Positions 8,436-45,799 of a stretch of DNA of 64,000 bases are shown here, one piece after another (positions within the stretch are counted from its first letter, which is position 1; each line of letters begins with the position of its first letter). The position numbers and the translations under genes are program-made. The notes beneath the pieces were generated by a model that ran no database searches, was not told the DNA's origin, and saw only the letters and a program-made list of their open reading frames with translations. Source of the DNA: Phoronis australis (lineage: Eukaryota > Animalia > Phoronida); contig NMRA01000286.1 in assembly GCA_002633005.1 (NCBI GenBank), positions 360,503 to 424,502 of the forward strand. The letters are read 5' to 3'.

Positions 8436-8563
8436 CTCGTGGCTGCTGACAACAGCACGTCGGACAATGCGTCGTCCACGGGGGCAGAGTCGAACCAGGG
8501 TCAAGATATGCCACCCCAAGAGAGGGTGGGTGGTATAGGAGACAGTAGGCCGCCATCGTTCCA
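8436..8563 (+). CDS. dvl: Dvl exon immediately after the DIX domain (LVAADN...[15 protein letters not shown])
   Basis: Polypyrimidine tract + tgtag acceptor; CA|gtaagt donor; phase 0/2; conserved [11 protein letters not shown] motif. Confidence 0.95.
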
Positions 8564-26500: not shown

Positions 26501-29500
26501 CTGTCACCACCAGTTTTCCCCTTTTAAAATGTAATACACTTATGTTTATATCTTAAACACAGAACCACCCCTAAACAAATTATATCCCAGGGGAATGTTA
26601 GCTAAAGTATTCACTTTGTTTGTATTCTAAACACCATTTGTGTTGACTAACTTCTGAAAGTCTTTTGCTAATTTGTAACCCAAAATCTTTTTTGTCTAGA
26701 TCACCTGGAGGTTTCAGGCATGTGTAGACATCACTGGGGGTACTGTCCTGTCTGTGGTTTTCTGGTTAAGTTTATGTACGTCCTCAAGATGTGTTATTAC
26801 GTGGTGTAGAGAAATGTTGAAATAATGAAAGTAAATTTCCAGGTTCCTGGTGGTACAGCTGGTGTAAAGAAATTGATTTTCAGAGTTGAGCGTGGTTTAT
26901 GAAGTGCATATTGTCTTCTACCAACACTAAAGAATGTTTCCAAATTTCCAGAATGATTGTTATTACCAAGCGCATGCATTGGCTTGCCACTAACACAGTG
27001 AAGGATACAAGTCTCCCACGATTACTAAACCACACCTTCGTCTTTTACAGGCCCACATGCCAAACAAATCAATGGACACTCGATAAGACACGAGCGGCCA
27101 ACACGTGACCGCGGACATGGCTATGAGACGGCATCGTCGTTCATGTCGAGTGACATCGACTCCACGAGCTACTTCGACTCGGAGGACGATAATGCCAGCA
27201 GGTAGATAGCTTGCATTTGTTTCTACAGCCTGTGCTTTTGTGTTCTAGCGCCCCCTCACAGAGTGAACGGACACTCGTCCGGCCGTAGCGGCTTCACTAA
27301 CTCATCATCCGTGTACAGTAGTGACATCTGCTCAACAACGAGCTACTCAGATTCGGAGAATGATGCCGCGTCGAGGTTTGTTCGTTAGCAACTTATAATC
27401 GACTTATGCACTGTGAATACATTTTCACAATTTGCATCATTAATTTCCTTAATCACTTCATTTAGGATTTTTGCTTTTGTTATGTTGGAAATTTTTGTCA
27501 ACTTGGTCACACAAAATGTTCCAAAATGTTTATAATTTTGTGAGGGTTATCAAGTGTTTGAGAACGACCAGGCCTGCCCATTCAGTTGACGAGTTGTGAT
27601 GGGGGGATGCACTAAACACTGGCTACAAGTTCAACCAAGTACTCTGTGTATAACCTATGCTGACCTCAGTATGTGCAACTGCCACTCTGCACTGGGACAA
27701 GTGTTATTTTGCTACTCATGTGTAGTAAAGTGCTATTTTTTTGAAGAAGGGATACAATGTTTGCCTGAGGCCCAAATTATATGTCATTTGACACAACTGA
27801 GCTAAAGAAGAGGCGTGTTGTTCATAAGTTTGTTTCCGTGGATACAATTTTGATGAACTGCAAGAAATAAAACTAAAGGAATAAAAAACAATAAGCTCAT
27901 TTCGTGCTTGTTTTCCTGTATTTTCTGAAAGTACCGCCAGATTCGTCTCAGTTTTTCACGTGTGTCATTCTGTGCTAGTGCAATGATTTTTGGCCTGTTT
28001 TCACTGCCCTAAAGAAATTGAAACCCAAAAATTTTGTAAGGTGTGTCCAATGGAACGGAGTGATTGGAAATATAGGGCAAACACTGTAGGATGCACGTTT
28101 TTACTGTTTTGAACAAGGAACTTTGAACTCACACAAGCCTAAGTCAAGTGCAAATGGAGAACTCCAAATTAAATAAATCAATTTAGCTGTAGTGAATGTT
28201 CCCATCGAGTGAATTAACTCTATTCCATCTATGGTACTGTCATGTATAATTAGAACTGTTAACTGGCTGTCAAAAACAACAAAGACGATGGATCGCCACC
28301 CCAAAACATGAAGCTGAGTAATGGTTTTCAAAGGTGGCGCTGCGTGTTGCTGTTGTCCGTATAACGTGTGAATTGTCGTCGTACATGAGGTTTGCTAGCA
28401 CGGCTGTAAAGTTATTTTGAATAGAAATGTTTCTGTATCAAGCTGCAAGTATTCATGGAACTGTCTACTTAGGATCCCTAATTATCACAACTAATTAATA
28501 ATGACCTCATTTGTCGATGACTGAAATTTGTTCTGGTGGAAGGACTACAGTTCTACACATTTTGTGTCGTTCTTTGACTAAAAGGATTACAACTTGCATT
28601 TTCGTTTAATGGTGCTCTGCATTTGTGTTGATTCAATTATCTTGCAGTAACCACCGTAATTCAATTATTGGCCATCTTTGGAGTAGTTTTGCAAAAATCC
28701 CCTCCGGCTAGATTTCGCTAATGAATTTTTATGGTAAAACGTCTCACTGAGGCTTCCTGCAATGTCATTGACCCATCTGCACTTTGTCGTGCTTCTGTTT
28801 TGGTAGTCAGACCCAAGTTGTACAAGAAGCATGCTAGAAGCTGCTTTAATGATATTCTGGCCAATACTGAGATTGGGTCATTTACTGACTAGTTGAGATG
28901 CATTCTAAGCTTAATGCATGGGTTTATAGCTTTAATCATCCTTTAATGTCTTCATTATGATCAGTATGGCTATAATTCCTGTGTTTATGAGCCACTGGTT
29001 TACTCACACTGTGATGTTAAAAGACTTGCCCAATGTTTTATGCTAAATTTTGAAGCATTTTATCCTGTAGAACCAGGTGACATGTACCTGCCAACAGCCA
29101 ATACGTTGTATTTTAACCAACAAAGTCACCTCTTTTTCTGAGCTCTTGCGTTGGTTTTGTGGAAACGATTAACGGAATTAACATGAACAAATGGCGCGTC
29201 TGAATCCTTCCAGAGAAATGTTTGCCGTGGAGTATCTGGAAGAACTGGCCTGGTGTAAGATATTAATGGTTCTTGTTAACTTTCCAGTGGTTATGTTTTG
29301 TTATGTTACCACTAACTTTTTTATGAAAAGTGGACTGGCATACGTAGAGTGAGTGATAGGAGAAACCAGGCAGAAATAGTATCCATGGAGATTGTAATTT
29401 ATCCTGTGGTCAATTATATTATGTGACCATTAAGTGTTTACTAGTTTTAGTTGAGAAATAATTGATAGGTACTTTTTGTTGACCACTGCCTTCTTTTTCA

Positions 29501-35500: not shown

Positions 35501-38500
35501 TGACCTGCTGTTGTTCAGCATGTCTGTCCTTGGTGGTGGTACTAAATACCTAATGTTTTGGTGAACAATAGGATTGTGATCTAGTTTCATAGTGATCAGT
35601 GTTTACCTGTGGTCGGGTTTCAACCATAGGCAGGGATCTTAGGTAGAAACATGCAGTGTCAATCTGGTGTTATCTGTTGAATAGATGGAAGATGTGAAGT
35701 TGATGGTTTCTAATGTCGCACAGTCTGTTCCAAGTATGTATTTGCTTTTGTGTTGTACCCTGACTGTCCAGTCTGTAGTCGGTGGTCACAGCCATGTGTT
35801 TTACTTGTCTTGTTTCCAACCATGTTGCCTTTGACTTGAACTAATGGTGTTCTACATTCTTAGTGAGATATGTCTGTGTGTGGGAGGGTTATGTGTATTT
35901 GGGGGGCCTATGTGTGTGTGTATGCATTTGTGTGACTGAATGATAACCATAAGAATTTCACCTTCTTCGAGCCTAGTTGGTGTTAAACAATTAATCTGCC
36001 GGGGTCTGGTGGCTTTACGCGTTACGCTGTATGTACCAACAATGGCTGGATACTGGTAAGGTCAAGGGCCATAGTTCAAGGAGTTCATGATAGTCTCTGG
36101 TATGTATTAATCCAGGATCGTTATTTTTTACAGGCCTCGTCGTTCAGTAGTATCACAGACTCGACCATGTCGCTCAACATTATCACAGTCACACTGAACA
36201 TGGGTAGGTGTCAGCAGTAATGCCCAGAGTTTTTTCAAAGTGTCTACTGTTGTTTAGGCAACCCTGTAATCTGTTGAGAGTGAAGGCAACTGCATCAGAC
36301 CCCATGCTCCAGTAAATTAATAGTTGTAATTTGGCCAACCCTGTAATCTGTTCTGGCTGGAGACAGTGGTGTGGTTGATATATGGCGTATAAACATAAAT
36401 AGCGCCATGATGACCACAATAAACACCTTCAATCATCTTAGTCTGCTAAAGACTGACTCTTTTTGATTTCATTTAGTTATGTGGTATGCAAGAAAACACA
36501 TTATTTAGTTTTGTGACAGAATGTAGTGTAATCTTAAGCAAACCTGTGTTTGGTGGAGAATGTTAAGTTGTGCATTGTGTGTTATTCCAGACAAGGTCAA
36601 CTTCCTTGGAATCAGCATAGTGGGGCAAAGCAATAAGGGCGGTGATGGTGGTATCTATGTGGGCTCTATAATGAAAGGGTAAGTAGACAGCACTGTGTCT
36701 TTTCAGCTGTACAAGTCGATATTCTACATAGATGTGGTGTGCTGTATGTGAAATCTTATGCACGTTATGAGGTCACAAGTTAAACCAACGAGTTGATGCT
36801 TTTTGAAATGAATTGTATATTTTACGATCTACTCACTAGATTGTTTCATTGGTGAGAGATGGTGCGTTGAATCTCAGTCGTTAGTTGTAGCTGAAGTAGT
36901 GTTTACTGTGAAGCCCACCAATGTTATGGTGCTTCTTACCTGTCAACATGTCTCTTGCACTGCCCCAATAAGACTGTGCTTCTTGCAATGTGCTGTGATC
37001 TCCCCTTTTTCAGTGGTGCTGTTGCCCAAGATGGTCGCATTGAGCCTGGCGACATGATACTGGAGGTGAATGGTGTCAGCTTTGAGAACATGAGTAACGA
37101 TGACGCAGTGCGTGCATTGAGGGAAGCTGTGCAAAAACCAGGGTAGGACAATTTAAGCTTTTGTTGACAGTTGGTTCAGTTTTACGGCCATATTCTGAAG
37201 TACTCAACTTAAATGGTACAACAAAGGATCCGTTAGCATCCTGAGTGTCTATCCTTGAAGACCCTGCATTGAGTCTTAATTTCCCAGTGTCTCATTGGTT
37301 GTTATGTCTTAGTGTAAGAATTATTAGTCCTTGTTTGGCAGCTTAACAGTTTGAGGATATAAAGTTCTTTGTTAATTTGCATAACTGTTACATGTTCTAC
37401 CAAAGGTGCACCCAAGATGTTGTTCCTTGGCCAGAGCCCTCAAGTTAGCGTCATGTTGACCTATTGACCTATTGACCTATTGATCTGATGATCTCTCATC
37501 TCTTCCAGGCCCATCACATTGGTCGTGGCAAAGTGCTGGGATCCCAACCCCAAGGGCTACTTCACAATTCCTCGGCAGGAGCCGGTGCGACCCATCGACC
37601 CGTCGGCATGGGTGGCGCATACAGCGGCGATGCGGGGTGACTACCCCCGCGGGCCGGGCTCAGTCAGCACGGTGACAACTAGCACAGACTTGACAAGCTC
37701 ACTTGGGGACCCTGAAAGTAAGTAACATGGTAAATTGTTGTGTTATTAAGCATGGATTTTGTTTTGTATATTTACATTAAATCATCTTCCCTTTAGAACG
37801 CAATATGGTGAAACTTTGATGTTCTACTGAGTCAAATTTCTCATCAAAACTAAATGCGACAAAAATGTTATTGCATTGTTTAGTACAGTTCGTATTGTGC
37901 AGCTGTTGTAATTGGCCATTTGTAACTTTTGAGCATTTTAAAGCTATATTGAGTGCTGCTTTAGCCAGTCCAAAATGGCTAATATCAAAGAAAGATGAAA
38001 TAATACTGAAGTAGTTTATTAAGTCAAACATGAGGCGTATGAGCTCCATTTCGACCACAGTATAACCACAGGAAACCAAAAGACTTGATAACTTGTCTTA
38101 TTGCAAAACTCGATTTTTTTGTGACCATGACAAAATTAAATGAAAACAATAAACCATGCCTTTGTATCATATAGTAACAACTGTATTACCAAAGCAGTGC
38201 ACGATATACCTTTAACAATGCAAAATTGGAAATTGACAATTTCATCTGCAGTTGTTCTTGTTAGAATACGAAGAACCTTAACTTCACTTTGTGTATAGCT
38301 TGGGACAAAGAATGCTAATGCTGCAGATTCTTGAACGTGCAGTCCTACAGAAGTTGATAAAATGGCAATTCTTGTTTAAAAGACATTAGAAATTTAACTC
38401 CTCGTCCAGGCAGTAGGCTTCAGCATTTAACCTTTTTTTCTGTTCACCTGACCATGTTAATCAACTCAAATTGGAATAACCATTGATTTGCATTACTTAT

Positions 38501-41500
38501 GCTTGCAGGGTTCGATGAGCTGAATCTCAGTATAGAGACTGACATGCTGAGTGTGGTGCGGGCCATGGCCCAGCCAGACTCAGGACTGGAGATACGAGAT
38601 AGGATGTGGTTAAAAATACGCATACCAAATGCATTTATAGGTAATGTTACAACGTGACCGGTTAATCTCCGTAGTTCTGTCTTGTATTTAAAAACCATGC
38701 GTTACTGCTTATTGTATGTATGACGCCACTGCACAAATGCATTTTTTATAACCCAGAAGTTGCAAAATATCCATTGTTATGTTTCAATTTGAACAAAAAT
38801 GTCTAATTTTTAGTATCGTGTTTTTGTTATGAAGGTGTCCTCAGCATGAGTTGGCAAACCACTTAAATATGTTCTTGATATTTGCCTATATTTTGGAGTT
38901 GTCTCCCTCGATAGTACGTCCCATAATTCATGCATAATGGTTTTCGAATTTTAAGAGTTGTATTGATGTTGATTACTTTTGTTGCCCGTTTTATTTGCAG
39001 TAACTGTACGCTGGAGTGTGGATTTTCATAACAAATGTTTTAAATTTTATTGACCGATTAATGCGTGTATGCATGCAAGCGCAAACGCTTGAAATTCCTG
39101 GGGCGGAAGTCTGATCTCAGTACCGGAAACTCGACTCAAAAAGTTACTTACAAATTTGTACTTGAATCATGGAGCATTATTTTAAGTTTAGTTGAGTGTG
39201 CATTCTGAAGTTAGACCCCAGTTCCTGCACCAGCTATCACTTGTACTGACCTTGACCCCACATGTTGTCTTTGTTGTTCTGCAGGTTCAGACTTAGTAGA
39301 CTGGTTACACACACACGTGGAGGGCTTCCTAGACAGGCGTGATGCCAGGAAGTATGCTTGTAATTTATTGAAGGCAGGATATATCAGACACACGGTCAAC
39401 AAAATAACATTCTCCGAGCAGTGCTACTACATCTTCGGAGACCTCTATGGAGGTAAGTTAGAGCTAAACCCTCATTCCTAGGAGTATGCCTAAGGCACCT
39501 GCAAACACGCAGGGTGGAAATGCGCAATTATGAGATAACTTTTAGAACTCGGCAAACAAACTTGAGGACGGGTAGGGATTGCTATTGCACATGTTGAATG
39601 TCATAATGGCCGACCTGTCAAAGTTTTATAAATATATGTTATACAACGTATGAGGGCGAAGCCCGAGTTCAAATACTTTTGCATATCACAAATCTCGATA
39701 TAATTACTGGTACAAACACATACGTTGTATAACATATCTATCCTATGCGCTCCACTGAGGATTCTTTGAAGAAGCGGGTTTTCAATGATTGCTCCTCTTC
39801 TTTTTTTGCCGTTTGTCATCTTTTATCAATGATGATCGCAAATCGCGTGACACGTATACGTGCATGCAATATTTTTATCAATGAATTTTTGCAGCCTGCA
39901 TGACAGGGCAGTTCAAGTTGTATTTTATAGCAGCTACAGGCTTTGGGCACATATTTGTTATTTTCAGTATTTTTGTCAGTGCTTGAGGTGAAATCTATTT
40001 CTAAGTTAAAGTTTGTATACATTTCTGGCGTTTTTCTCGACTTCGTTGAGCAATATCTGTGCAGGACACCCAGACGTTGTGGCTGATGCACATTCAGACG
40101 CTTTTTAAAAATGCTCCTTGCACACGGTTATCATTTTTAGGTACAGAAATTTATCATAAAATTGACAAAAACACAGTGTTTATAGTAGTTGCAGTTTTGC
40201 TTTTGGGCTCGACGTATTTTGATTGTTTTGAGAACGAATTTAAAAATTGACTCATATTTGACCATAGAGAACCTAATCTGGTTAGTACAATAGGTGACCA
40301 AAAGGAGGCATGCATTGGTAATGTTTATTGCTTTCCTAAACCCAAATATATTGTGGCAATTTTGAGGCTTTTTATAATTTGTGTTCTGTTCAGGTGCAAA
40401 ATTTCAGGGTATATTAAGAAAAATTGTCAACAATATTTTTATTTCTTTTTTTTGTTCAGTTTTGAAAATGCATATCATAGTATTGGCATGTGAAAATATT
40501 GTGCACGGAGCTGAACCCAAAGTGAGTCTATATAATAACAATCAGGTTTCTTCGGATTGTAGTGTATTGTGTGCACAGGAGGGAATTTTGGCGAGAAAGA
40601 AGGCATCCGTATTCAAGGCGCGTTGAATACGGAAAAGTAGTTCTTCCATATCAAACATCACAATACGACCCGTATTTCATGGCCTTATTATCATGCATAT
40701 TACATAGTCAGTAATATCTTCTTTAACGTACTCTGTGAACATGTATTTGAAGTGCCATTGCACATATTTCTTTTATGTGTATCTTATGCATAAATAAGAT
40801 AAATACCAAGTTGGCTACAACAGGTAGCAGTCTACAGCGGCTGCAATTTCACATGACTTCGTCAGCTTCTTTGATTTGTTTTTAACCTTGGGAAGAGTCA
40901 TGGACAATCTTTATCCTTTTCTGAGTCCTCACAAACACTTGATTTTTGATGACAGTTCACATCAATCCTGAAATAGGATATAATTTTATTCAAATGCATT
41001 AGATTTGTCATTTCTGATGAGAGAATTTGTACCGTGAAATAAAGCAGAATTTTTTAATTGGCTTTTTCTATTCATTCTGTCTCCTAGCTGGCGAGAATGC
41101 CAAGTTCGGCATCTACGGCCTACCTGACATGGGCGGGCTTAGCCTCAACGACATCGACAGTGTTTCAGAGGCGGATCAGGACACCCTGGCACCTCTTCCC
41201 CCACCCGCCTGGAACAACTACTACCAGTACCCACCGCAGTATGTGCCCCCACCCTTCAGCTACTCACAAGATGGTGGCAGCTGTCATAGTTATCCTCTTC
41301 CAGGAGGGAATGGCAGTGCAGGAAGTCAACACAGCGGATCAGGTAGGTGTTGGCTTGGAGACACTGTGGAGGTGGTGGGCAGTTGGTATATGACTGTGTG
41401 TTGATTGATGGGCTGTTTGTCACTGGTTGCCTAAGAACTAGGAAATGGTTTTTTTTTGCAAAAGTTTTGTCTTGCTTCAGTGAAGTTATTGGGGAAAACA

Positions 41501-42491
41501 AGAAAGATAGTTGGCAAAAAGCAGGGCTAAATATCCTTTGAATATCATGATAAAAAAATTGTCCAATTTTGGGGCAGTCTCTAAAATTTGGGAAACCAAA
41601 TTTCAAGGAGAAATTGAATTTCCTTGATTGTGAAGATTGGGACATGGGTGATTTTGGTATTTGTCATATTTCTGAAATATCGAACTCTGCGTTTTGTACA
41701 GAGTCTGAGAATAGACTTGGCAATTGATTAAATAGCCACCGATGCAACATAGTGTGTAGCATTGGCTGCAGTTGATAGACTTTGTCGATTCCATAGGTTC
41801 AAGTGGCTAAGGCATCTGATTAGTCTGTAAGCCTAAACTATCGTTAGACCAGAAGTCTGAGAACTAATCTTTATGATTCCTGGGTTGTTTTATACTTTCC
41901 TGCAAGTTGACTGTGACTGCTGACGGTGTCGAGGTTCTGATGATTCAGCCGGTTGTGGTTTGTAGGTGGCGGTAAGCTGTAGTGCTCCTCTGCCGGCAAT
42001 GCTGCTGATTGAGAAGCATCTTGGTGTGGCTGAGATTGAATGCAAACTCTGTGCCAGGCTCAAAATGTATATCACTAAGATGAGCTTCCTTCCTGCAAAC
42101 CATAGTTTCCCATTCTGGTTACTTCGAATTTTAAATGGAGACTGAAGGCTTGATTTTCTAGTCCTGAATGTATTTTTCATTTGTAGGGGATATTTGTGTT
42201 ATTATTCAATTCGCTTTTAACAAAACATCTTTTTCCCTGGCCTATGGAAAAACTTATGGTGTGATTGTCTTGGGTGTTGGAGATTGACAGTTCTCTTTAT
42301 TTGAATGCGGTTCGTGTAACATCCTCTGTTAAGCAAGGTAGCGAGGGTGTTGGTATACGAATTTTTCTCTCAAGTGTGACTTTTCTCCCAACTCTATGGT
42401 GAATGTCCGACTTCTTTTGGATCCTACCATCTTATTAAATATGACTGAACGACTGAACTGTAAGTTCACCTGTTCTTGTGTCAGGGTGTTA

Positions 42492-42534
<43 letters not shown>

Positions 42535-44070
42535 CTTGTTCTAATAACGGCGGACATATGTCACTGTTACTGCAGTCCCTCGGAAACTAATTTTTTCACC
42601 TCGGCATGATTTTTAGTGTTTGGAATTGTAGCATATCTTTCAGTGTTATTCAGTTGTCTTGGTTCACAGCATCCCACCCTAGTTAGCTGTGGTTACCCAT
42701 TGATTTAGTTATCCCATTTGCATGTTGGCACAAATCCCTCGTACCCTGAACACTCGAGCGCGTGCACTCAACTTCCTTTCTATTTCACGCCGTCGTCCCG
42801 TGCAGCCGCGAGCACATTCCCTGTGAACACATGTGTATGCCTAATGCGACATGTTCGCAACTTGCGCAAGTTGTGGGAGCAGAAGGAGAAAAAAGCAGCA
42901 ACGTCGTCGTCCCACTGCAAGACGGCCAATTCCAAAATGGCCGACGGTTTCTGCACCCCACCTCCCGCATGTCCTGACAAGCCTCTTGACCAACTGCACC
43001 CATCGTGTTCTTACCGCAGCTACCAGGAACAGTTGGAAGAGCTGGATGATGATGTCAAGGGTTGGTCCGACGTATTGTCACAATTCTGTTGTTTGCTGAG
43101 CTCCTTATGATTTGCCCACATTGCAAAAAGTCCTCACTTATGCGACTAACATTTTCCCTAGGTTTCATTTCTTTTGCTTCTTGTTGTTGGTTTCGCTAAT
43201 GTCCTTAGTTGATTCTGATATACTGTTTGTTGCTTTGGTATTTTTGTTTGAACTGTGGTTGTTTCTTAGTGCGTATGTTATAATTTTCAAGTGTTTTTGT
43301 GACATGACACATTTAATTTTGAGTTAAAGTACTGAGTGGAGGGATGGCTGTTATGTTGTTATTGGCTCTATGAGCTGTTGAAAATATGGTTACATCTGGA
43401 TGTCTAGTGAAATTAGTCATTACAATCAGAAAATTTCATACAGCTGTTTTGGTAATTCACTTAAAGGAGTGCGGAGTCTTCGTTTACAGGTTTTCATACA
43501 AAACGACAAAATCTCATTCATTTTGCTCATTTCTGTAGCATTATGGTAAAAATACTGACACAAGTTAATGGGGGGTTGTCCCAATGTCAGGCTTGATGAA
43601 AAACAGCAAAAATTCTGTGGAACATTTCTGAGTCAAGAGTGAATGCCAACTGAACAGTAATTGGCAGAAAATCTTATGACAATGACAAAAATGGTTTACT
43701 CAAACACTTAATGGGGTTTTGTCATTTTTTTTTAACTGCTGCAATGCATTTCCATTGATACTAGTGAAAGGGGTTGACCATTTTGTGTCTCTCCTTTACA
43801 GGCAGCAGTCACTCAGGCAGTGGAAAGATGAAGAAAGAGAAAAATAAGGAGAAATCGGGTGGAAGTAGTTCCGGCAGCGAGACAGATGCGCACAGTGTGG
43901 CCAGTGTACGCCGTGGTGCCGCCTCGGAGCGCAGCTTTGCGCCAAGTGAGCGAAGTCTACCCCCACCACCTGTAGAACTGCTCAACGTCAACCCAGAGCT
44001 CAGTGGCAGTCGGCAGTCCTTCCGTATGGCCATGGGAAATCCTTGTGAGTTTTTTGTCGACGTCATGTGA
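8436..44070 (+). CDS. dvl: Dishevelled (Dvl/dsh), 5'-partial multi-exon gene; DIX exons lie upstream of the window
   Basis: Hand-spliced exons 8436-8563, 10780-10877, 19283-19360, 27051-27201, 30786-30879, 36134-36203, 36591-36678, 37014-37142, 37509-37717, 38509-38640, 39285-39452, 41088-41342, 43802-44070. All are GT-AG, phases match, and the total is 1869 nt with no internal stop. Hallmark motifs: [45 protein letters not shown] (PDZ), [16 protein letters not shown] (DEP), [20 protein letters not shown]. Confidence 0.98.
10780..10877 (+). CDS. dvl: Dvl linker exon ([32 protein letters not shown])
   Basis: ttttag acceptor; CAG|gtatgt donor; phase 2/1 fits neighbours; TES-hydrophobic-S-x-RR pattern as in other Dvl proteins. 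Confidence 0.88.
14987..15083 (+). CDS. Candidate alternative first coding exon of Dvl ([32 protein letters not shown])
   Basis: caccATGG start context; 32 open codons + 1 nt; CAG|gtaaaa donor in phase 1, matching the downstream exons. No homology support. Confidence 0.35.
18336..18564 (-). repeat. Dispersed repeat family A, copy 3 (inverted)
   Basis: Reverse complement reads aaaatctcatc...ggctatggtccagaagttgaacat...gccatattgtctcctaa. Confidence 0.65.
19283..19360 (+). CDS. dvl: Dvl symmetric 78-nt His/Arg/Tyr-rich exon ([26 protein letters not shown])
   Basis: ctttcttttcatttccgctcag acceptor; ACG|gtaagg donor; phase 1/1; GC-rich island in an AT-rich intron; open in the Dvl frame. Confidence 0.8.
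19915..20146 (+). repeat. Dispersed repeat family A, copy 4
   Basis: gtgaaatctcacca...caaggtcttctaac...tggtagctatggtacac...cagccatattgtgtcctaa. Confidence 0.7.
20628..20656. repeat. Interrupted (GT)n microsatellite
   Basis: Read directly from the sequence. Confidence 0.9.
27051..27201 (+). CDS. dvl: Dvl Ser/acidic exon, variant A ([11 protein letters not shown]...[27 protein letters not shown])
   Basis: cttttacag acceptor; CAG|gtagat donor; phase 1/2; matches the conserved Dvl MSS(D/E)xxSTSxxDS(D/E) segment. Confidence 0.93.
27249..27375 (+). CDS. dvl: Dvl Ser/acidic exon, variant B; duplicated paralogue of variant A ([10 protein letters not shown]...[24 protein letters not shown])
   Basis: cttttgtgttctag acceptor; GAG|gtttgt donor; same 1/2 phases as variant A; open frame; clear peptide similarity to variant A. 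Confidence 0.8.
29782..29974. repeat. Imperfect foldback (MITE-like), about 190 nt
   Basis: Nested inverted arms: accacttac/gtaagtggt, actccaactt/aagttggggt, gcttgcgaaaaattgac/gtcaatttttcccaagc, agttctt/aagaact. Confidence 0.7.
30655..30738. repeat. Perfect 42-nt tandem duplication
   Basis: taagaaacgttttcaataagaataaaatcctttttagtgaaa x2. Confidence 0.95.
30786..30879 (+). CDS. dvl: Dvl basic-region exon ([31 protein letters not shown])
   Basis: cttacag acceptor; AGA|gtgagt donor; phase 2/0; poly-Arg basic region typical of Dvl. Confidence 0.95.
31025..31135 (-). repeat. Dispersed repeat family A, copy 5 (fragment, inverted)
   Basis: gagaaaaattgtgggcattca...ggcaattttggcaattatttggtgagatttt is the reverse complement of the family's 5' half. 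Confidence 0.55.
33719..33802 (+). CDS. Candidate alternative first coding exon of Dvl ([28 protein letters not shown])
   Basis: ATG preceded by an in-frame stop; 28 codons; TTA|gtaagt donor in phase 0, matching exon 36134; ends in LTDSTISL, which resembles ITDSTMSL of the next exon. Confidence 0.3.
36134..36203 (+). CDS. dvl: Dvl exon, start of PDZ ([23 protein letters not shown])
   Basis: Near-invariant Dvl peptide; tttacag acceptor; gtaggt donor; phase 0/1. Confidence 0.98.
36591..36678 (+). CDS. dvl: Dvl PDZ exon ([30 protein letters not shown])
   Basis: Conserved carboxylate-binding loop FLGISI; ttccag acceptor; gtaagt donor; phase 1/2. Confidence 0.98.
37014..37142 (+). CDS. dvl: Dvl PDZ exon ([43 protein letters not shown])
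   Basis: Conserved PDZ sequence; tttcag acceptor; gtagga donor; phase 2/2. Confidence 0.98.
37456..37483. repeat. (ttgaccta)x3.5 mini tandem repeat just upstream of the acceptor at 37508
   Basis: Read directly from the sequence. Confidence 0.85.
37509..37717 (+). CDS. dvl: Dvl PDZ end and proline-rich exon ([12 protein letters not shown]...[14 protein letters not shown]...)
   Basis: Conserved VAKCWDP and EPVRPIDP motifs; ttccag acceptor; gtaagt donor; phase 2/1. Confidence 0.97.
38040..38214 (+). repeat. Dispersed repeat family B, copy 1
   Basis: gagctccatt...ttttgtgaccat...aattaaatgaaaa...gtaaca.ctgtat...taccttta shared with 47309-47493. Confidence 0.55.
38509..38640 (+). CDS. dvl: Dvl DEP exon 1 (...[27 protein letters not shown])
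   Basis: Conserved DEP N-terminal part; ttgcag acceptor; gtaatg donor; phase 1/1. Confidence 0.98.
39285..39452 (+). CDS. dvl: Dvl DEP exon 2 (SDLVDWL...[19 protein letters not shown])
   Basis: Conserved DEP C-terminal part; ctgcag acceptor; gtaagt donor; phase 1/1. Confidence 0.98.
39634..39737. repeat. Perfect 19-bp inverted repeat enclosing a GGGC-GAA-GCCC mini-hairpin
   Basis: atatgttatacaacgtatg (39634-39652) / catacgttgtataacatat (39719-39737); 66-nt spacer. Confidence 0.85.
41088..41342 (+). CDS. dvl: Dvl post-DEP exon (LSLND...DQDTLAPLP...PPQY...GSAGSQHS)
   Basis: Conserved DQDTLAPLP and GSAGSQHS motifs; cctag acceptor; gtaggt donor; phase 1/1. Confidence 0.95.
42494..42533. repeat. 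(TG)20 microsatellite
   Basis: Read directly from the sequence. Confidence 0.97.
42806..43110 (+). CDS. Candidate alternative terminal exon of Dvl, 101 aa ending [10 protein letters not shown]
   Basis: Pyrimidine-rich tract + tgcag; phase-1 entry puts it in a 100-codon open frame; GC/CpG-rich like the true exons. Confidence 0.55.
43802..44070 (+). CDS. dvl: Dvl canonical terminal exon (...[22 protein letters not shown])
   Basis: tttacag acceptor in phase 1; canonical Dvl C-terminal PDZ-binding tail; TGA at 44068-44070. Confidence 0.98.
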
Positions 44071-44616
44071 TTGGCATGGTGTGATGCAGAGATTGTCATG
44101 AGGACATTGTCATGTGACCACGTCTGATTGGCTGTTGCATGATCAACTTCATGAGATCACATTGTTTGATCATTGGCTTGTTGGTTGTCGCATAATTATG
44201 GCTTAGCTGGTGTTCTAATGTCGACTTGAATTTGTTACTGTGTCTGTATGCTGCCACTATTATGTAATAACTTTATGGTGCTTTTATCACGTTGGATAAA
44301 TAACAATAATAACTGTGATCAAAAAAGTTAGAGCGAGCTTCTCTTTTCATGTTTGTAACATCTAATTACAGTGTCCACTTTGTGTGATTATACTTTCATT
44401 GTTAATCTTTTTCTTATTTAGATTGCACCGAAATCTTCTAAATTGTTAATTTGTTTCACATTTGAGTTTCCTTAACTGCCAAACAAAATTAAATTTACAT
44501 GAACATGTTCCAGCATCTTTGTAAACACGGCTATTGTTTCTCTCCACTCCATCTTCAGTTGACCTATCTTGCCTTTCGTATGGCAGTCTCTAATATGTCT
44601 CTCTTCTCGTTTTTAG

Positions 44617-44648
44617 CTGAGCAACTAAACCAGCTCGACCAGCTATAA
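44617..44648 (+). CDS. Candidate alternative Dvl C-terminal mini-exon ((S)EQLNQLDQL*)
   Basis: Branch-like ctctaat at 44588, pyrimidine tract and tttttag acceptor at 44616; matching phase-1 donor T|gtgagt at 44044/44045 inside the canonical last exon. Confidence 0.5.
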
Positions 44649-45799
44649 CCCTGGTGACGGGACTCTAGTCTTGCTTCTCGCCACTTCCTAAAGCCGACTC
44701 TCACTGCACTCCTAGCTGTAGCTCGGCACCAGATGCTGCCACGCAGTTTCTAGCTACTGGCTAATTAACTTCTATGCGACTTTTCATCTACACAAATTTG
44801 GGGGAAAGCTGGATTTGGTCGGTGGTGGAAGTGCTTGGTTTGAATATCTCTGCCGTCAGATTACGCAGATCACGGCAGTTAAGATTTGCCTGGTGTGTGT
44901 ACCGTTTTGTTCGAAACGGGTTTGTGGGTTGCAAGATGCTTAGGTGCTTCTAACAAGCGTCGTATGTCTTAACGGGGTAAACTTTTGTGTAAGTAACACA
45001 TTTATGTCTGGTGCTCAGCTTTAGTCCTCCCATGATGGGTGACATATTGTAACTTGTTATGATATGAACAGAAGGGTGCATACCACGTGCCCCTTAACCA
45101 CCAAGAAACTCGCAGAAGTGATGAAATTTAAGATCATTTTATTGACTGTATGTTTGATATTATCTTTGACTGCATTTTTGTTATTGATGTATGCCACGTT
45201 TTCGTAACCTGTCTACCGAGTCTGAATCTATGAATGAGAATGGAGCAAAGTGCGGGCATCTGGCCCAACTATTGTGTAATATTATGTAATATTGCTGTTG
45301 GTGTTAATTGTGGATAATTGGTGTATTGTAATTAAAATTGAGTAGCCTTTAGCTTTTGTGTGGTTCGTTTAAATGTCCCATGTTGACTCGATTTCCGACA
45401 CGCTGGGAACATTTCCTTCATCGTTAATAGTACGAGTACAACTGACTGAATGTGACCTAACTGCTTGGACATGTTAGAGCCCTGCTGTTGTCGACTTGAT
45501 TAAATTGTCATAACTACTGTACGCTATGTGAATGTAATATTCCATGTCATGGTAGCATTTAGGGACAGTGTTAGGTTTGTACAGTATTCAAAATGTACTA
45601 CTATCATCTCTGCCAAGTGATGTTCTATGATCTGTCTGCTACAGGTCATGTTGTTAGCACTCAACCAGTGATATGGAGATACTGAGGTGTAAGCGCGTTC
45701 ATAGTCCATAGTGTTAAGTATTCTTATATACTCCTGCATGCGATGTTTGTTAATTTATACTTTTTATCTACTTACACCAGTCAAGTTTTTAGATAAATA

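Follow-up and report, generated by a model that had tools for sequence, protein, structure and literature searches.

Dishevelled (Dvl) carries a C-terminal tail that binds its own PDZ domain with a KD of ~7 μM through contacts at Met0, Asp-2, Val-3 and Phe-5, as described in PMC4577825. In the same source, Xenopus Dishevelled lacking the last eight residues (XDsh-C-delta-8, residues 1–724 of 732) exhibited weaker canonical signalling and stronger JNK and convergent-extension activity. Alternative last exons that toggle a C-terminal PDZ ligand are likewise known, from a review (PMC7094393), the long isoform of GIV/Girdin (PMC8042451) and the alpha forms of SynGAP (PMC9064290), and Dvl isoforms of the kind considered here are already present in automatic annotations. 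We analyzed a 64,000-nucleotide stretch of the Phoronis australis genome (contig NMRA01000286.1, positions 360,503–424,502 of the forward strand; hereafter the window, with positions counted from its first letter), which contains a Dishevelled gene on its + strand. The donor of a terminal intron lies inside the Cys-Glu codons of the tail, such that an intron that is kept would yield CEFFVDVM, and removal of its 572 nt would yield SEQLNQLDQL. The residues exchanged by the splice are precisely the eight that XDsh-C-delta-8 lacks; whereas in PMC4577825 the tail was removed by engineering or displaced by ligands, here it is replaced by splicing and some ligand features are kept. In contrast to the GIV/Girdin and SynGAP type, the Dvl ligand acts within its own molecule as a self-inhibitor, and the motif that splicing removes has the donor within its own codons. 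Frameshifts of DVL1 and DVL3 in Robinow syndrome (PMC5445114) also replace the C terminus including its PDZ-binding end, but these are pathogenic −1 shifts that alter a long C-terminal stretch, as compared to a natural swap of eight residues. The available passages of PMC4577825 name no splice isoform ('splic', 0 matches), and among the literature matches listed, three Dvl reviews included, none described a splice inside the Dvl tail; subscription papers and supplements lie mostly outside these matches, and a prior mention is possible. The splice itself is verified in RNA and its position is shared across distant animals; its function we infer.

The codons for Pro-Cys-Glu-Phe read CCT T/GT GAG T (the slash marks the exon end), placing a phase-1 GTGAGT donor at 44045–44050 on the + strand, and the joining of 44044 to 44617 yields ...MAMGNP-SEQLNQLDQL followed by a stop. 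Within the terminal intron (44045–44616, + strand) lie the codons for EFFVDVM, the canonical stop and a 546-nt stretch of 3′ untranslated region (UTR). Near its end are a predicted branch-point-like CTAAT (44590–44594, ~23 nt before the acceptor) and a polypyrimidine tract with the acceptor AG (44597–44616), the latter used in RNA. The coding part of the alternative last exon occupies 44617–44648, with its stop TAA at 44646–44648, and is followed by a 3′ UTR common to both forms (44649–45200, extending past 45200). A sequence-only reading of the window had proposed this donor, acceptor, intron length and joined translation, all of which were confirmed from sequence. Taken alone, these signals are weak: GTGAGT occurs nine times on the + strand of the window, and 11 sites in the 64 kb, the acceptor included, have pyrimidines at 17 or more of the 20 positions before the YAG. 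The same reading had emphasized that only one frame after the acceptor runs beyond 3 codons. This is true here, the other two frames giving LSN and a stop or an immediate stop, but we rejected it as support because 85 of the 1046 YAG sites in the gene span likewise have exactly one such frame. As far as mapped, each form has its stop in the last exon of its own transcript, and neither is therefore predicted to be a target of nonsense-mediated decay. Acceptor-like sites at 44558 and 44421 within the intron would yield other short tails, and no joint to either was listed. The 3′ end of the intron (44571–44594), translated in the frame of the new tail, gives AFRMAVSN and resembles SFRMAMGN at the exon end (44017–44040); the 13-nt likeness (FRMA) was considered as a relic of duplication and set aside, as it was equalled by 93 of 2000 shuffles (~5%) and 7 of 106 real windows and may be due to chance.

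Four runs were aligned to window positions 43700–45200. Three of these (X2, X3 and X4) are raw stranded reads from three samples of one study, with ~18–19% of each raw run read; X1 consists of contigs from another study and is only presumed to be RNA. The predicted joint 44044>44617 (572 nt, GT..AG) was detected in 7 reads with 6 starts in X3 and in 20 reads with 17 starts in X4. X2 had no entry in the joint table, and 4 of its loose-end reads before 44617 carry the donor-side exon end. All first mates lay on the − strand, as expected of + strand RNA in most stranded libraries. Across X2–X4, 11 loose-end reads (4+3+4) stop at 44617, and their consensus is the 44044 side (agreement 1, 1 and 0.97). 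A second junction put forward from the sequence, a skip from 41342 to 44617, was not seen among these 11 reads in the stretch aligned; a rare skip may occur, position 41342 lying outside 43700–45200. Unspliced over total depth at the acceptor was ~2.1/11.8 in X2, 0.2/16 in X3 and 16.5/42.8 in X4 (~18%, 1% and 39%), and at the donor ~1.9/10.5, 0/6.7 and 2.6/43.4 (~18%, 0% and 6%); in X2 and X4 the intron itself was covered at low depth. Contigs of X1 (43956–44140 and 44553–44889) cross the donor and the acceptor unspliced while the upstream junction is spliced, and the 44044>44617 joint is absent from the X1 contigs; pre-mRNA may be the source of this unspliced form. The ratio of spliced to unspliced RNA thus varies among the three samples of one study and relative to X1. 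Depth over the common 3′ UTR was observed in all four runs, as + strand RNA in X2–X4. The splice is real and both isoforms exist in RNA, and the spliced form is the majority in the three raw-read samples. In X4, depth climbs from 7 to 19 over 44414–44616, as compared to 1–4 over 44057–44413, with no joint or loose end listed; possible causes are a further RNA start, divergence between alleles and the filtering of reads.

Dvl ends were compared among 589 proteins (at the time of counting) from three homolog searches, one representative search and cluster look-ups, a sample that is ranked by similarity and redundant, so that its counts are not frequencies; the amniote DVL3 and invertebrate alternative isoforms in it are automatic annotations. 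The anchor AM[G/T]NP was present in 279 of the 589 proteins, 173 with canonical ends and 106 with other ends that comprise 29 distinct tails. Alternative tails starting right after GNP were found in molluscs, brachiopods, nemerteans, annelids, one crinoid and amniote DVL3. All 27 non-vertebrate tails start with Phe, Leu, Ser, Cys or a stop, as splicing at T/GT requires (22 of the 64 codons encode residues or stops that fit such a T-first start), and the 12 that lack an initial Cys cannot be later divergences. Both amniote tails start with Thr, which would fit A/GT of a Ser codon and suggests the donor position in amniotes. The residue of divergence in amniote DVL3 isoforms (XP_071898819.1, XP_010123154.1, CAI5776039.1) and in Mytilus, Haliotis, Octopus and Lingula Dvl is the same, as one phase-1 donor predicts, but these database isoforms differ in that their tails are unrelated in sequence, with a match at the DNA level for a mussel-like contig.

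Among the tails themselves, Lingula has STPPDE and SAFMSFI; gastropods SLIEAEDLE, SLIEAEDID and SLLEIEDIPTTID; bivalves CDSVIDS and CDSVMDL; cephalopods CSPWGWL; a chiton CQDTDL; and Owenia LFGE. A bare stop right after GNP ends Lineus X4, a Terebratalia protein and the crinoid Anneissia X5. The sequence-only reading had pointed to a 10-residue vertebrate DVL3 tail after GNP that ends in FDFL, and two such tails were indeed found: TKNYGVFDFL in DVL3 of bustard, duck, turtle and lizard (in one cluster, 4 of the 15 members listed) and TKNFGLFDFL in opossum DVL3 (1 of 119 new vertebrate matches, mostly fish). Two alternative tails per species occur in Lingula, Lineus, Tubulanus and Octopus. An alternative tail was carried by 3 of 3 Lingula and 3 of 3 Littorina cluster members and by all 21 anchored Haliotis proteins, and gene models of two other snails have the canonical end. 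Tails are kept within groups, as in amniote TKN(Y/F)G(V/L)FDFL, bivalve CDSV(I/M)D(S/L), gastropod SL(I/L)E(A/I)ED and cephalopod CSPWGWL, and are unrelated in sequence between groups. SEQLNQLDQL had no match in any other protein compared, contrary to the expectation that the acceptor and its 10-codon frame would be conserved in relatives. Within the 29 tails are also P0466, a long tail still ending in DVM that is a probable artefact, and the tail CR of Paralvinella P0468, a read-through of the donor; both are omitted from the 21 lineage-level tails used below. Separately, two Asterias proteins (P0010, P0301) diverge two residues earlier (MAMG, then LAQASEIARM), suggestive of another donor with the same loss of the tail. 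Bivalve Dvl isoforms from oysters (P0075–P0079, P0560, P0566, P0569), plus P0026 and P0041, have a wholly different last exon and no GNP anchor; the oyster isoforms of this kind have a hydrophobic C-terminal residue. Teleost dvl3a (P0001, P0121–P0171) has Gly in place of Ser/Cys before EFF and a degenerate RMAMGNP, so that the donor-bearing codon is changed.

The donor was also sought in the DNA of relatives by one scan of metagenome contigs, which returned 22 loci. L016 and L018 were dropped as not Dvl, leaving 20, and with six identical insect-like loci counted once there were 14 distinct canonical ends including that of the window. A mussel-like contig (L015) has the same donor position, with an acceptor 370 nt on that yields exactly the annotated Mytilus tail CDSVIDS. 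In L008 the site is T/GTAGGT, with the canonical tail absent from the 1033 nt downstream, and in L010 it is T/GTAAGT, with the canonical tail absent from the 755 nt downstream; judged from these contigs, the donor looks constitutive in both. The L008 peptide is the same as that of P0468. A vertebrate Dvl2-like locus (L013) has an AGC codon and no GT. Retention of GTGAGT at NP(C/S)EF across bilaterian Dvl genes had been suggested as a check. The same position is used across lophotrochozoans, but codon retention was rejected as proof of selection on the donor: the Cys codon is TGT in 13 of 13 loci (and the Glu codon GAG in 8 of 13), while a T before G at two control codons occurs in 13/13 and 10/13 (23/26 together), so that this bias explains the TGT count. 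L008 (at position 150) and L010 (minus strand, 967) are annelid-like Dvl loci with a full-consensus donor, and L010 contains a local repeat of exon end and donor ~90 nt downstream.

We lean towards a reading in which the splice weakens tail-to-PDZ self-inhibition and thereby shifts Dvl towards its open form. The new tail would bind the PDZ domain more weakly, self-inhibition would be loosened, and the ratio of the isoforms would set the balance of closed and open Dvl. SEQLNQLDQL keeps hydrophobic residues at positions 0 and −3 and Asp at −2, is without Phe at −5 and carries Gln at both −1 and −4; the lost Phe and the two Gln point to weaker binding, as far as the residues themselves can predict it. 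The pocket residues named in PMC4577825 appear conserved in the PDZ exons of the window (translations of open reading frames, compared by eye). The sole outcome shared across groups is the loss of EFFVDVM, with some isoforms adding nothing in its place, which favours release or weakened self-inhibition over other outcomes; the GNP-stop isoforms of three species are a natural equivalent of C-delta-8 (PMC4577825). A complex prediction with the Lingula PDZ domain as stand-in (residues 268–365) and a 30-residue frame scored 0.22 against a mark of 0.34 and was not used as evidence either way. In that frame, 21 residues read through the intron end, which are not part of the real protein, precede the final 9 residues of the alternative tail.

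Several observations weigh against weakened self-inhibition and its regulation by splicing. The effects of C-delta-8 come from Xenopus overexpression (PMC4577825). The window and amniote tails keep the ending phi-D-x-L (phi, hydrophobic), found in 7 of 1039 null tails, and judging from that ending they may still close Dvl; moreover, the Dvl PDZ domain has been called promiscuous (PMC13142005) and accepts internal Asp ligands (PMC7094393). The unspliced share in X4 differs by side (6% at the donor and 39% at the acceptor), and the filter can produce depth dips; as to regulation, the raw reads represent three samples of one study at low depth. Among the amphioxus, hemichordate, Nematostella and teleost proteins compared, none had a tail that diverges after GNP. 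The main rival, which we consider unlikely, is that selection has shaped the new tail as a PDZ ligand, either still able to close Dvl or directed at a different PDZ protein, so that it changes partners or affinity instead of opening Dvl. The shared phi-D-x-L ending fits this explanation, as do the equal length of the window and amniote tails (10 residues) and the three of four named contact features retained in the window tail; however, the window and amniote likeness is limited to a few positions. The end of the window tail, D-Q-L, agrees with the D/E-x-hydrophobic pattern of class III PDZ-binding motifs (as defined in PMC4577825; 17 of 1039 null tails have it), as had been noted from the sequence. 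Extended to the isoforms of relatives, the expected ending did not hold, with only the two amniote tails and the probable artefact P0466 ending D/E-x-hydrophobic among the 29. Conservation of tails within amniotes, bivalves, gastropods and cephalopods is also consistent with a selected ligand, and in the tails of bivalves and gastropods a late Asp or Glu is still preceded by a hydrophobic residue, Dvl PDZ being able to take internal Asp ligands (PMC7094393). A hydrophobic residue then Asp/Glu within the last 4 residues occurred in 4 of 21 lineage tails counted by hand as compared to 45 of 1039 null tails (p ~0.012), a motif selected after the data were seen; the other 17 of 21 lack it, three proteins have nothing but a stop after GNP, and the terminal residues of gastropod tails are acidic.

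A second rival, which we judge improbable, is a tolerated latent donor: coding constraint and CpG avoidance would create GTGAGT, lineages would repeatedly splice it to any downstream acceptor, and the tail would be of little importance in the tissues concerned. Consistent with this, the T-before-G controls match the TGT count for Cys, the alternative exons of different groups are not related to one another and number two in some species, and the amphioxus, hemichordate and teleost proteins compared showed none. However, three samples contain mostly the spliced form, group-specific tails are retained across genera, the canonical codons are intact within an intron that is often removed, and L008 and L010 have a full-consensus donor without the canonical tail. 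In a further explanation, to which we give very little credence, the splice acts mainly on the 3′ UTR by removing 546 nt through which the mRNA is stabilised, localised or translated, with the change in the protein as a side effect. The canonical form does have its proximal 3′ UTR in the intron, and tails are poorly conserved between groups, but an edit of the UTR needs no donor inside conserved codons, and conservation within groups is in the peptide.

The same donor position was found in protostomes and deuterostomes, from DNA for the window and L015 and, for amniotes and the crinoid, as deduced from the first residues of their tails. Neither a homologous downstream exon nor continuous presence across groups was found among the animals compared, the tails being unrelated and several groups being without annotated use. 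As protein constraint together with codon bias can create a donor, one ancient origin and repeated recruitment are both compatible with these data. Only tentatively, then, do we propose an ancient, regulated splice switch in the Dvl autoinhibitory motif, extending from molluscs and brachiopods to amniote DVL3, in which the choice of tail would set closed versus open Dvl and hence canonical versus polarity output, and the textbook tail would be the minor form in many lophotrochozoan tissues. What directs Dishevelled towards beta-catenin or planar-polarity signalling has been called unresolved (PMC7554312, PMC11592973). Support for the closed/open model comes from an engineered deletion of eight residues and from competing peptides; natural isoforms that remove those residues are now indicated, and they are abundant in Phoronis RNA and present in the annotations of many animals, amniote DVL3 among them. 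One synonymous change could silence the donor with the canonical protein untouched, which would provide a clean test. Constructs, antibodies and C-terminal tags for invertebrate Dvl and for DVL3 may cover only one of the two tails.

Assignment of the gene to Dvl is supported by its PDZ, DEP and Dsh_C exons, all above Pfam cut-offs. The PDZ domain (PF00595, E 7e-12 on one exon; best PDB matches, DVL PDZ domains), which contains the predicted tail-binding site, is encoded by three exons within 36131–37143 (~36131–36202, 36590–36679 and 37015–37143, tblastn limits; + strand) at 93–96% identity to Lingula Dvl. The DEP domain (PF00610, E 2e-12) lies on an exon at 39284–39451 (tblastn limits, + strand), and its named full-length matches are Dvl. 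Dsh_C (PF12316) scored above cut-off on two exons, and the extreme C terminus matches that of DVL-2. These two are the preceding exon (41088–41342, + strand), followed by a donor GT at 41343 and with its end present in loose-end reads, and the last coding exon of the unspliced form (43802–44070, + strand; stop TGA at 44068–44070), whose junction with the upstream exon shows up in each of the four runs through loose ends at 43799. The first exon detected, at 8439, encodes residues 79–122; residues 1–78 and the DIX exons were not found within the window and probably lie upstream of it. Summed tblastn scores against the window were highest for chiton (788), Lingula (780), nemertean (777) and Owenia (766) Dvl and lower for hemichordate (670), amphioxus (629) and lizard (599), a ranking that makes a lophotrochozoan the likely source of the gene. 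At 27044–27379, two adjacent tblastn matches cover overlapping Dvl residues (~185–227), suggestive of a duplicated or mutually exclusive exon. A (TG)20 repeat is located at 42494–42533, within the intron preceding the last coding exon.

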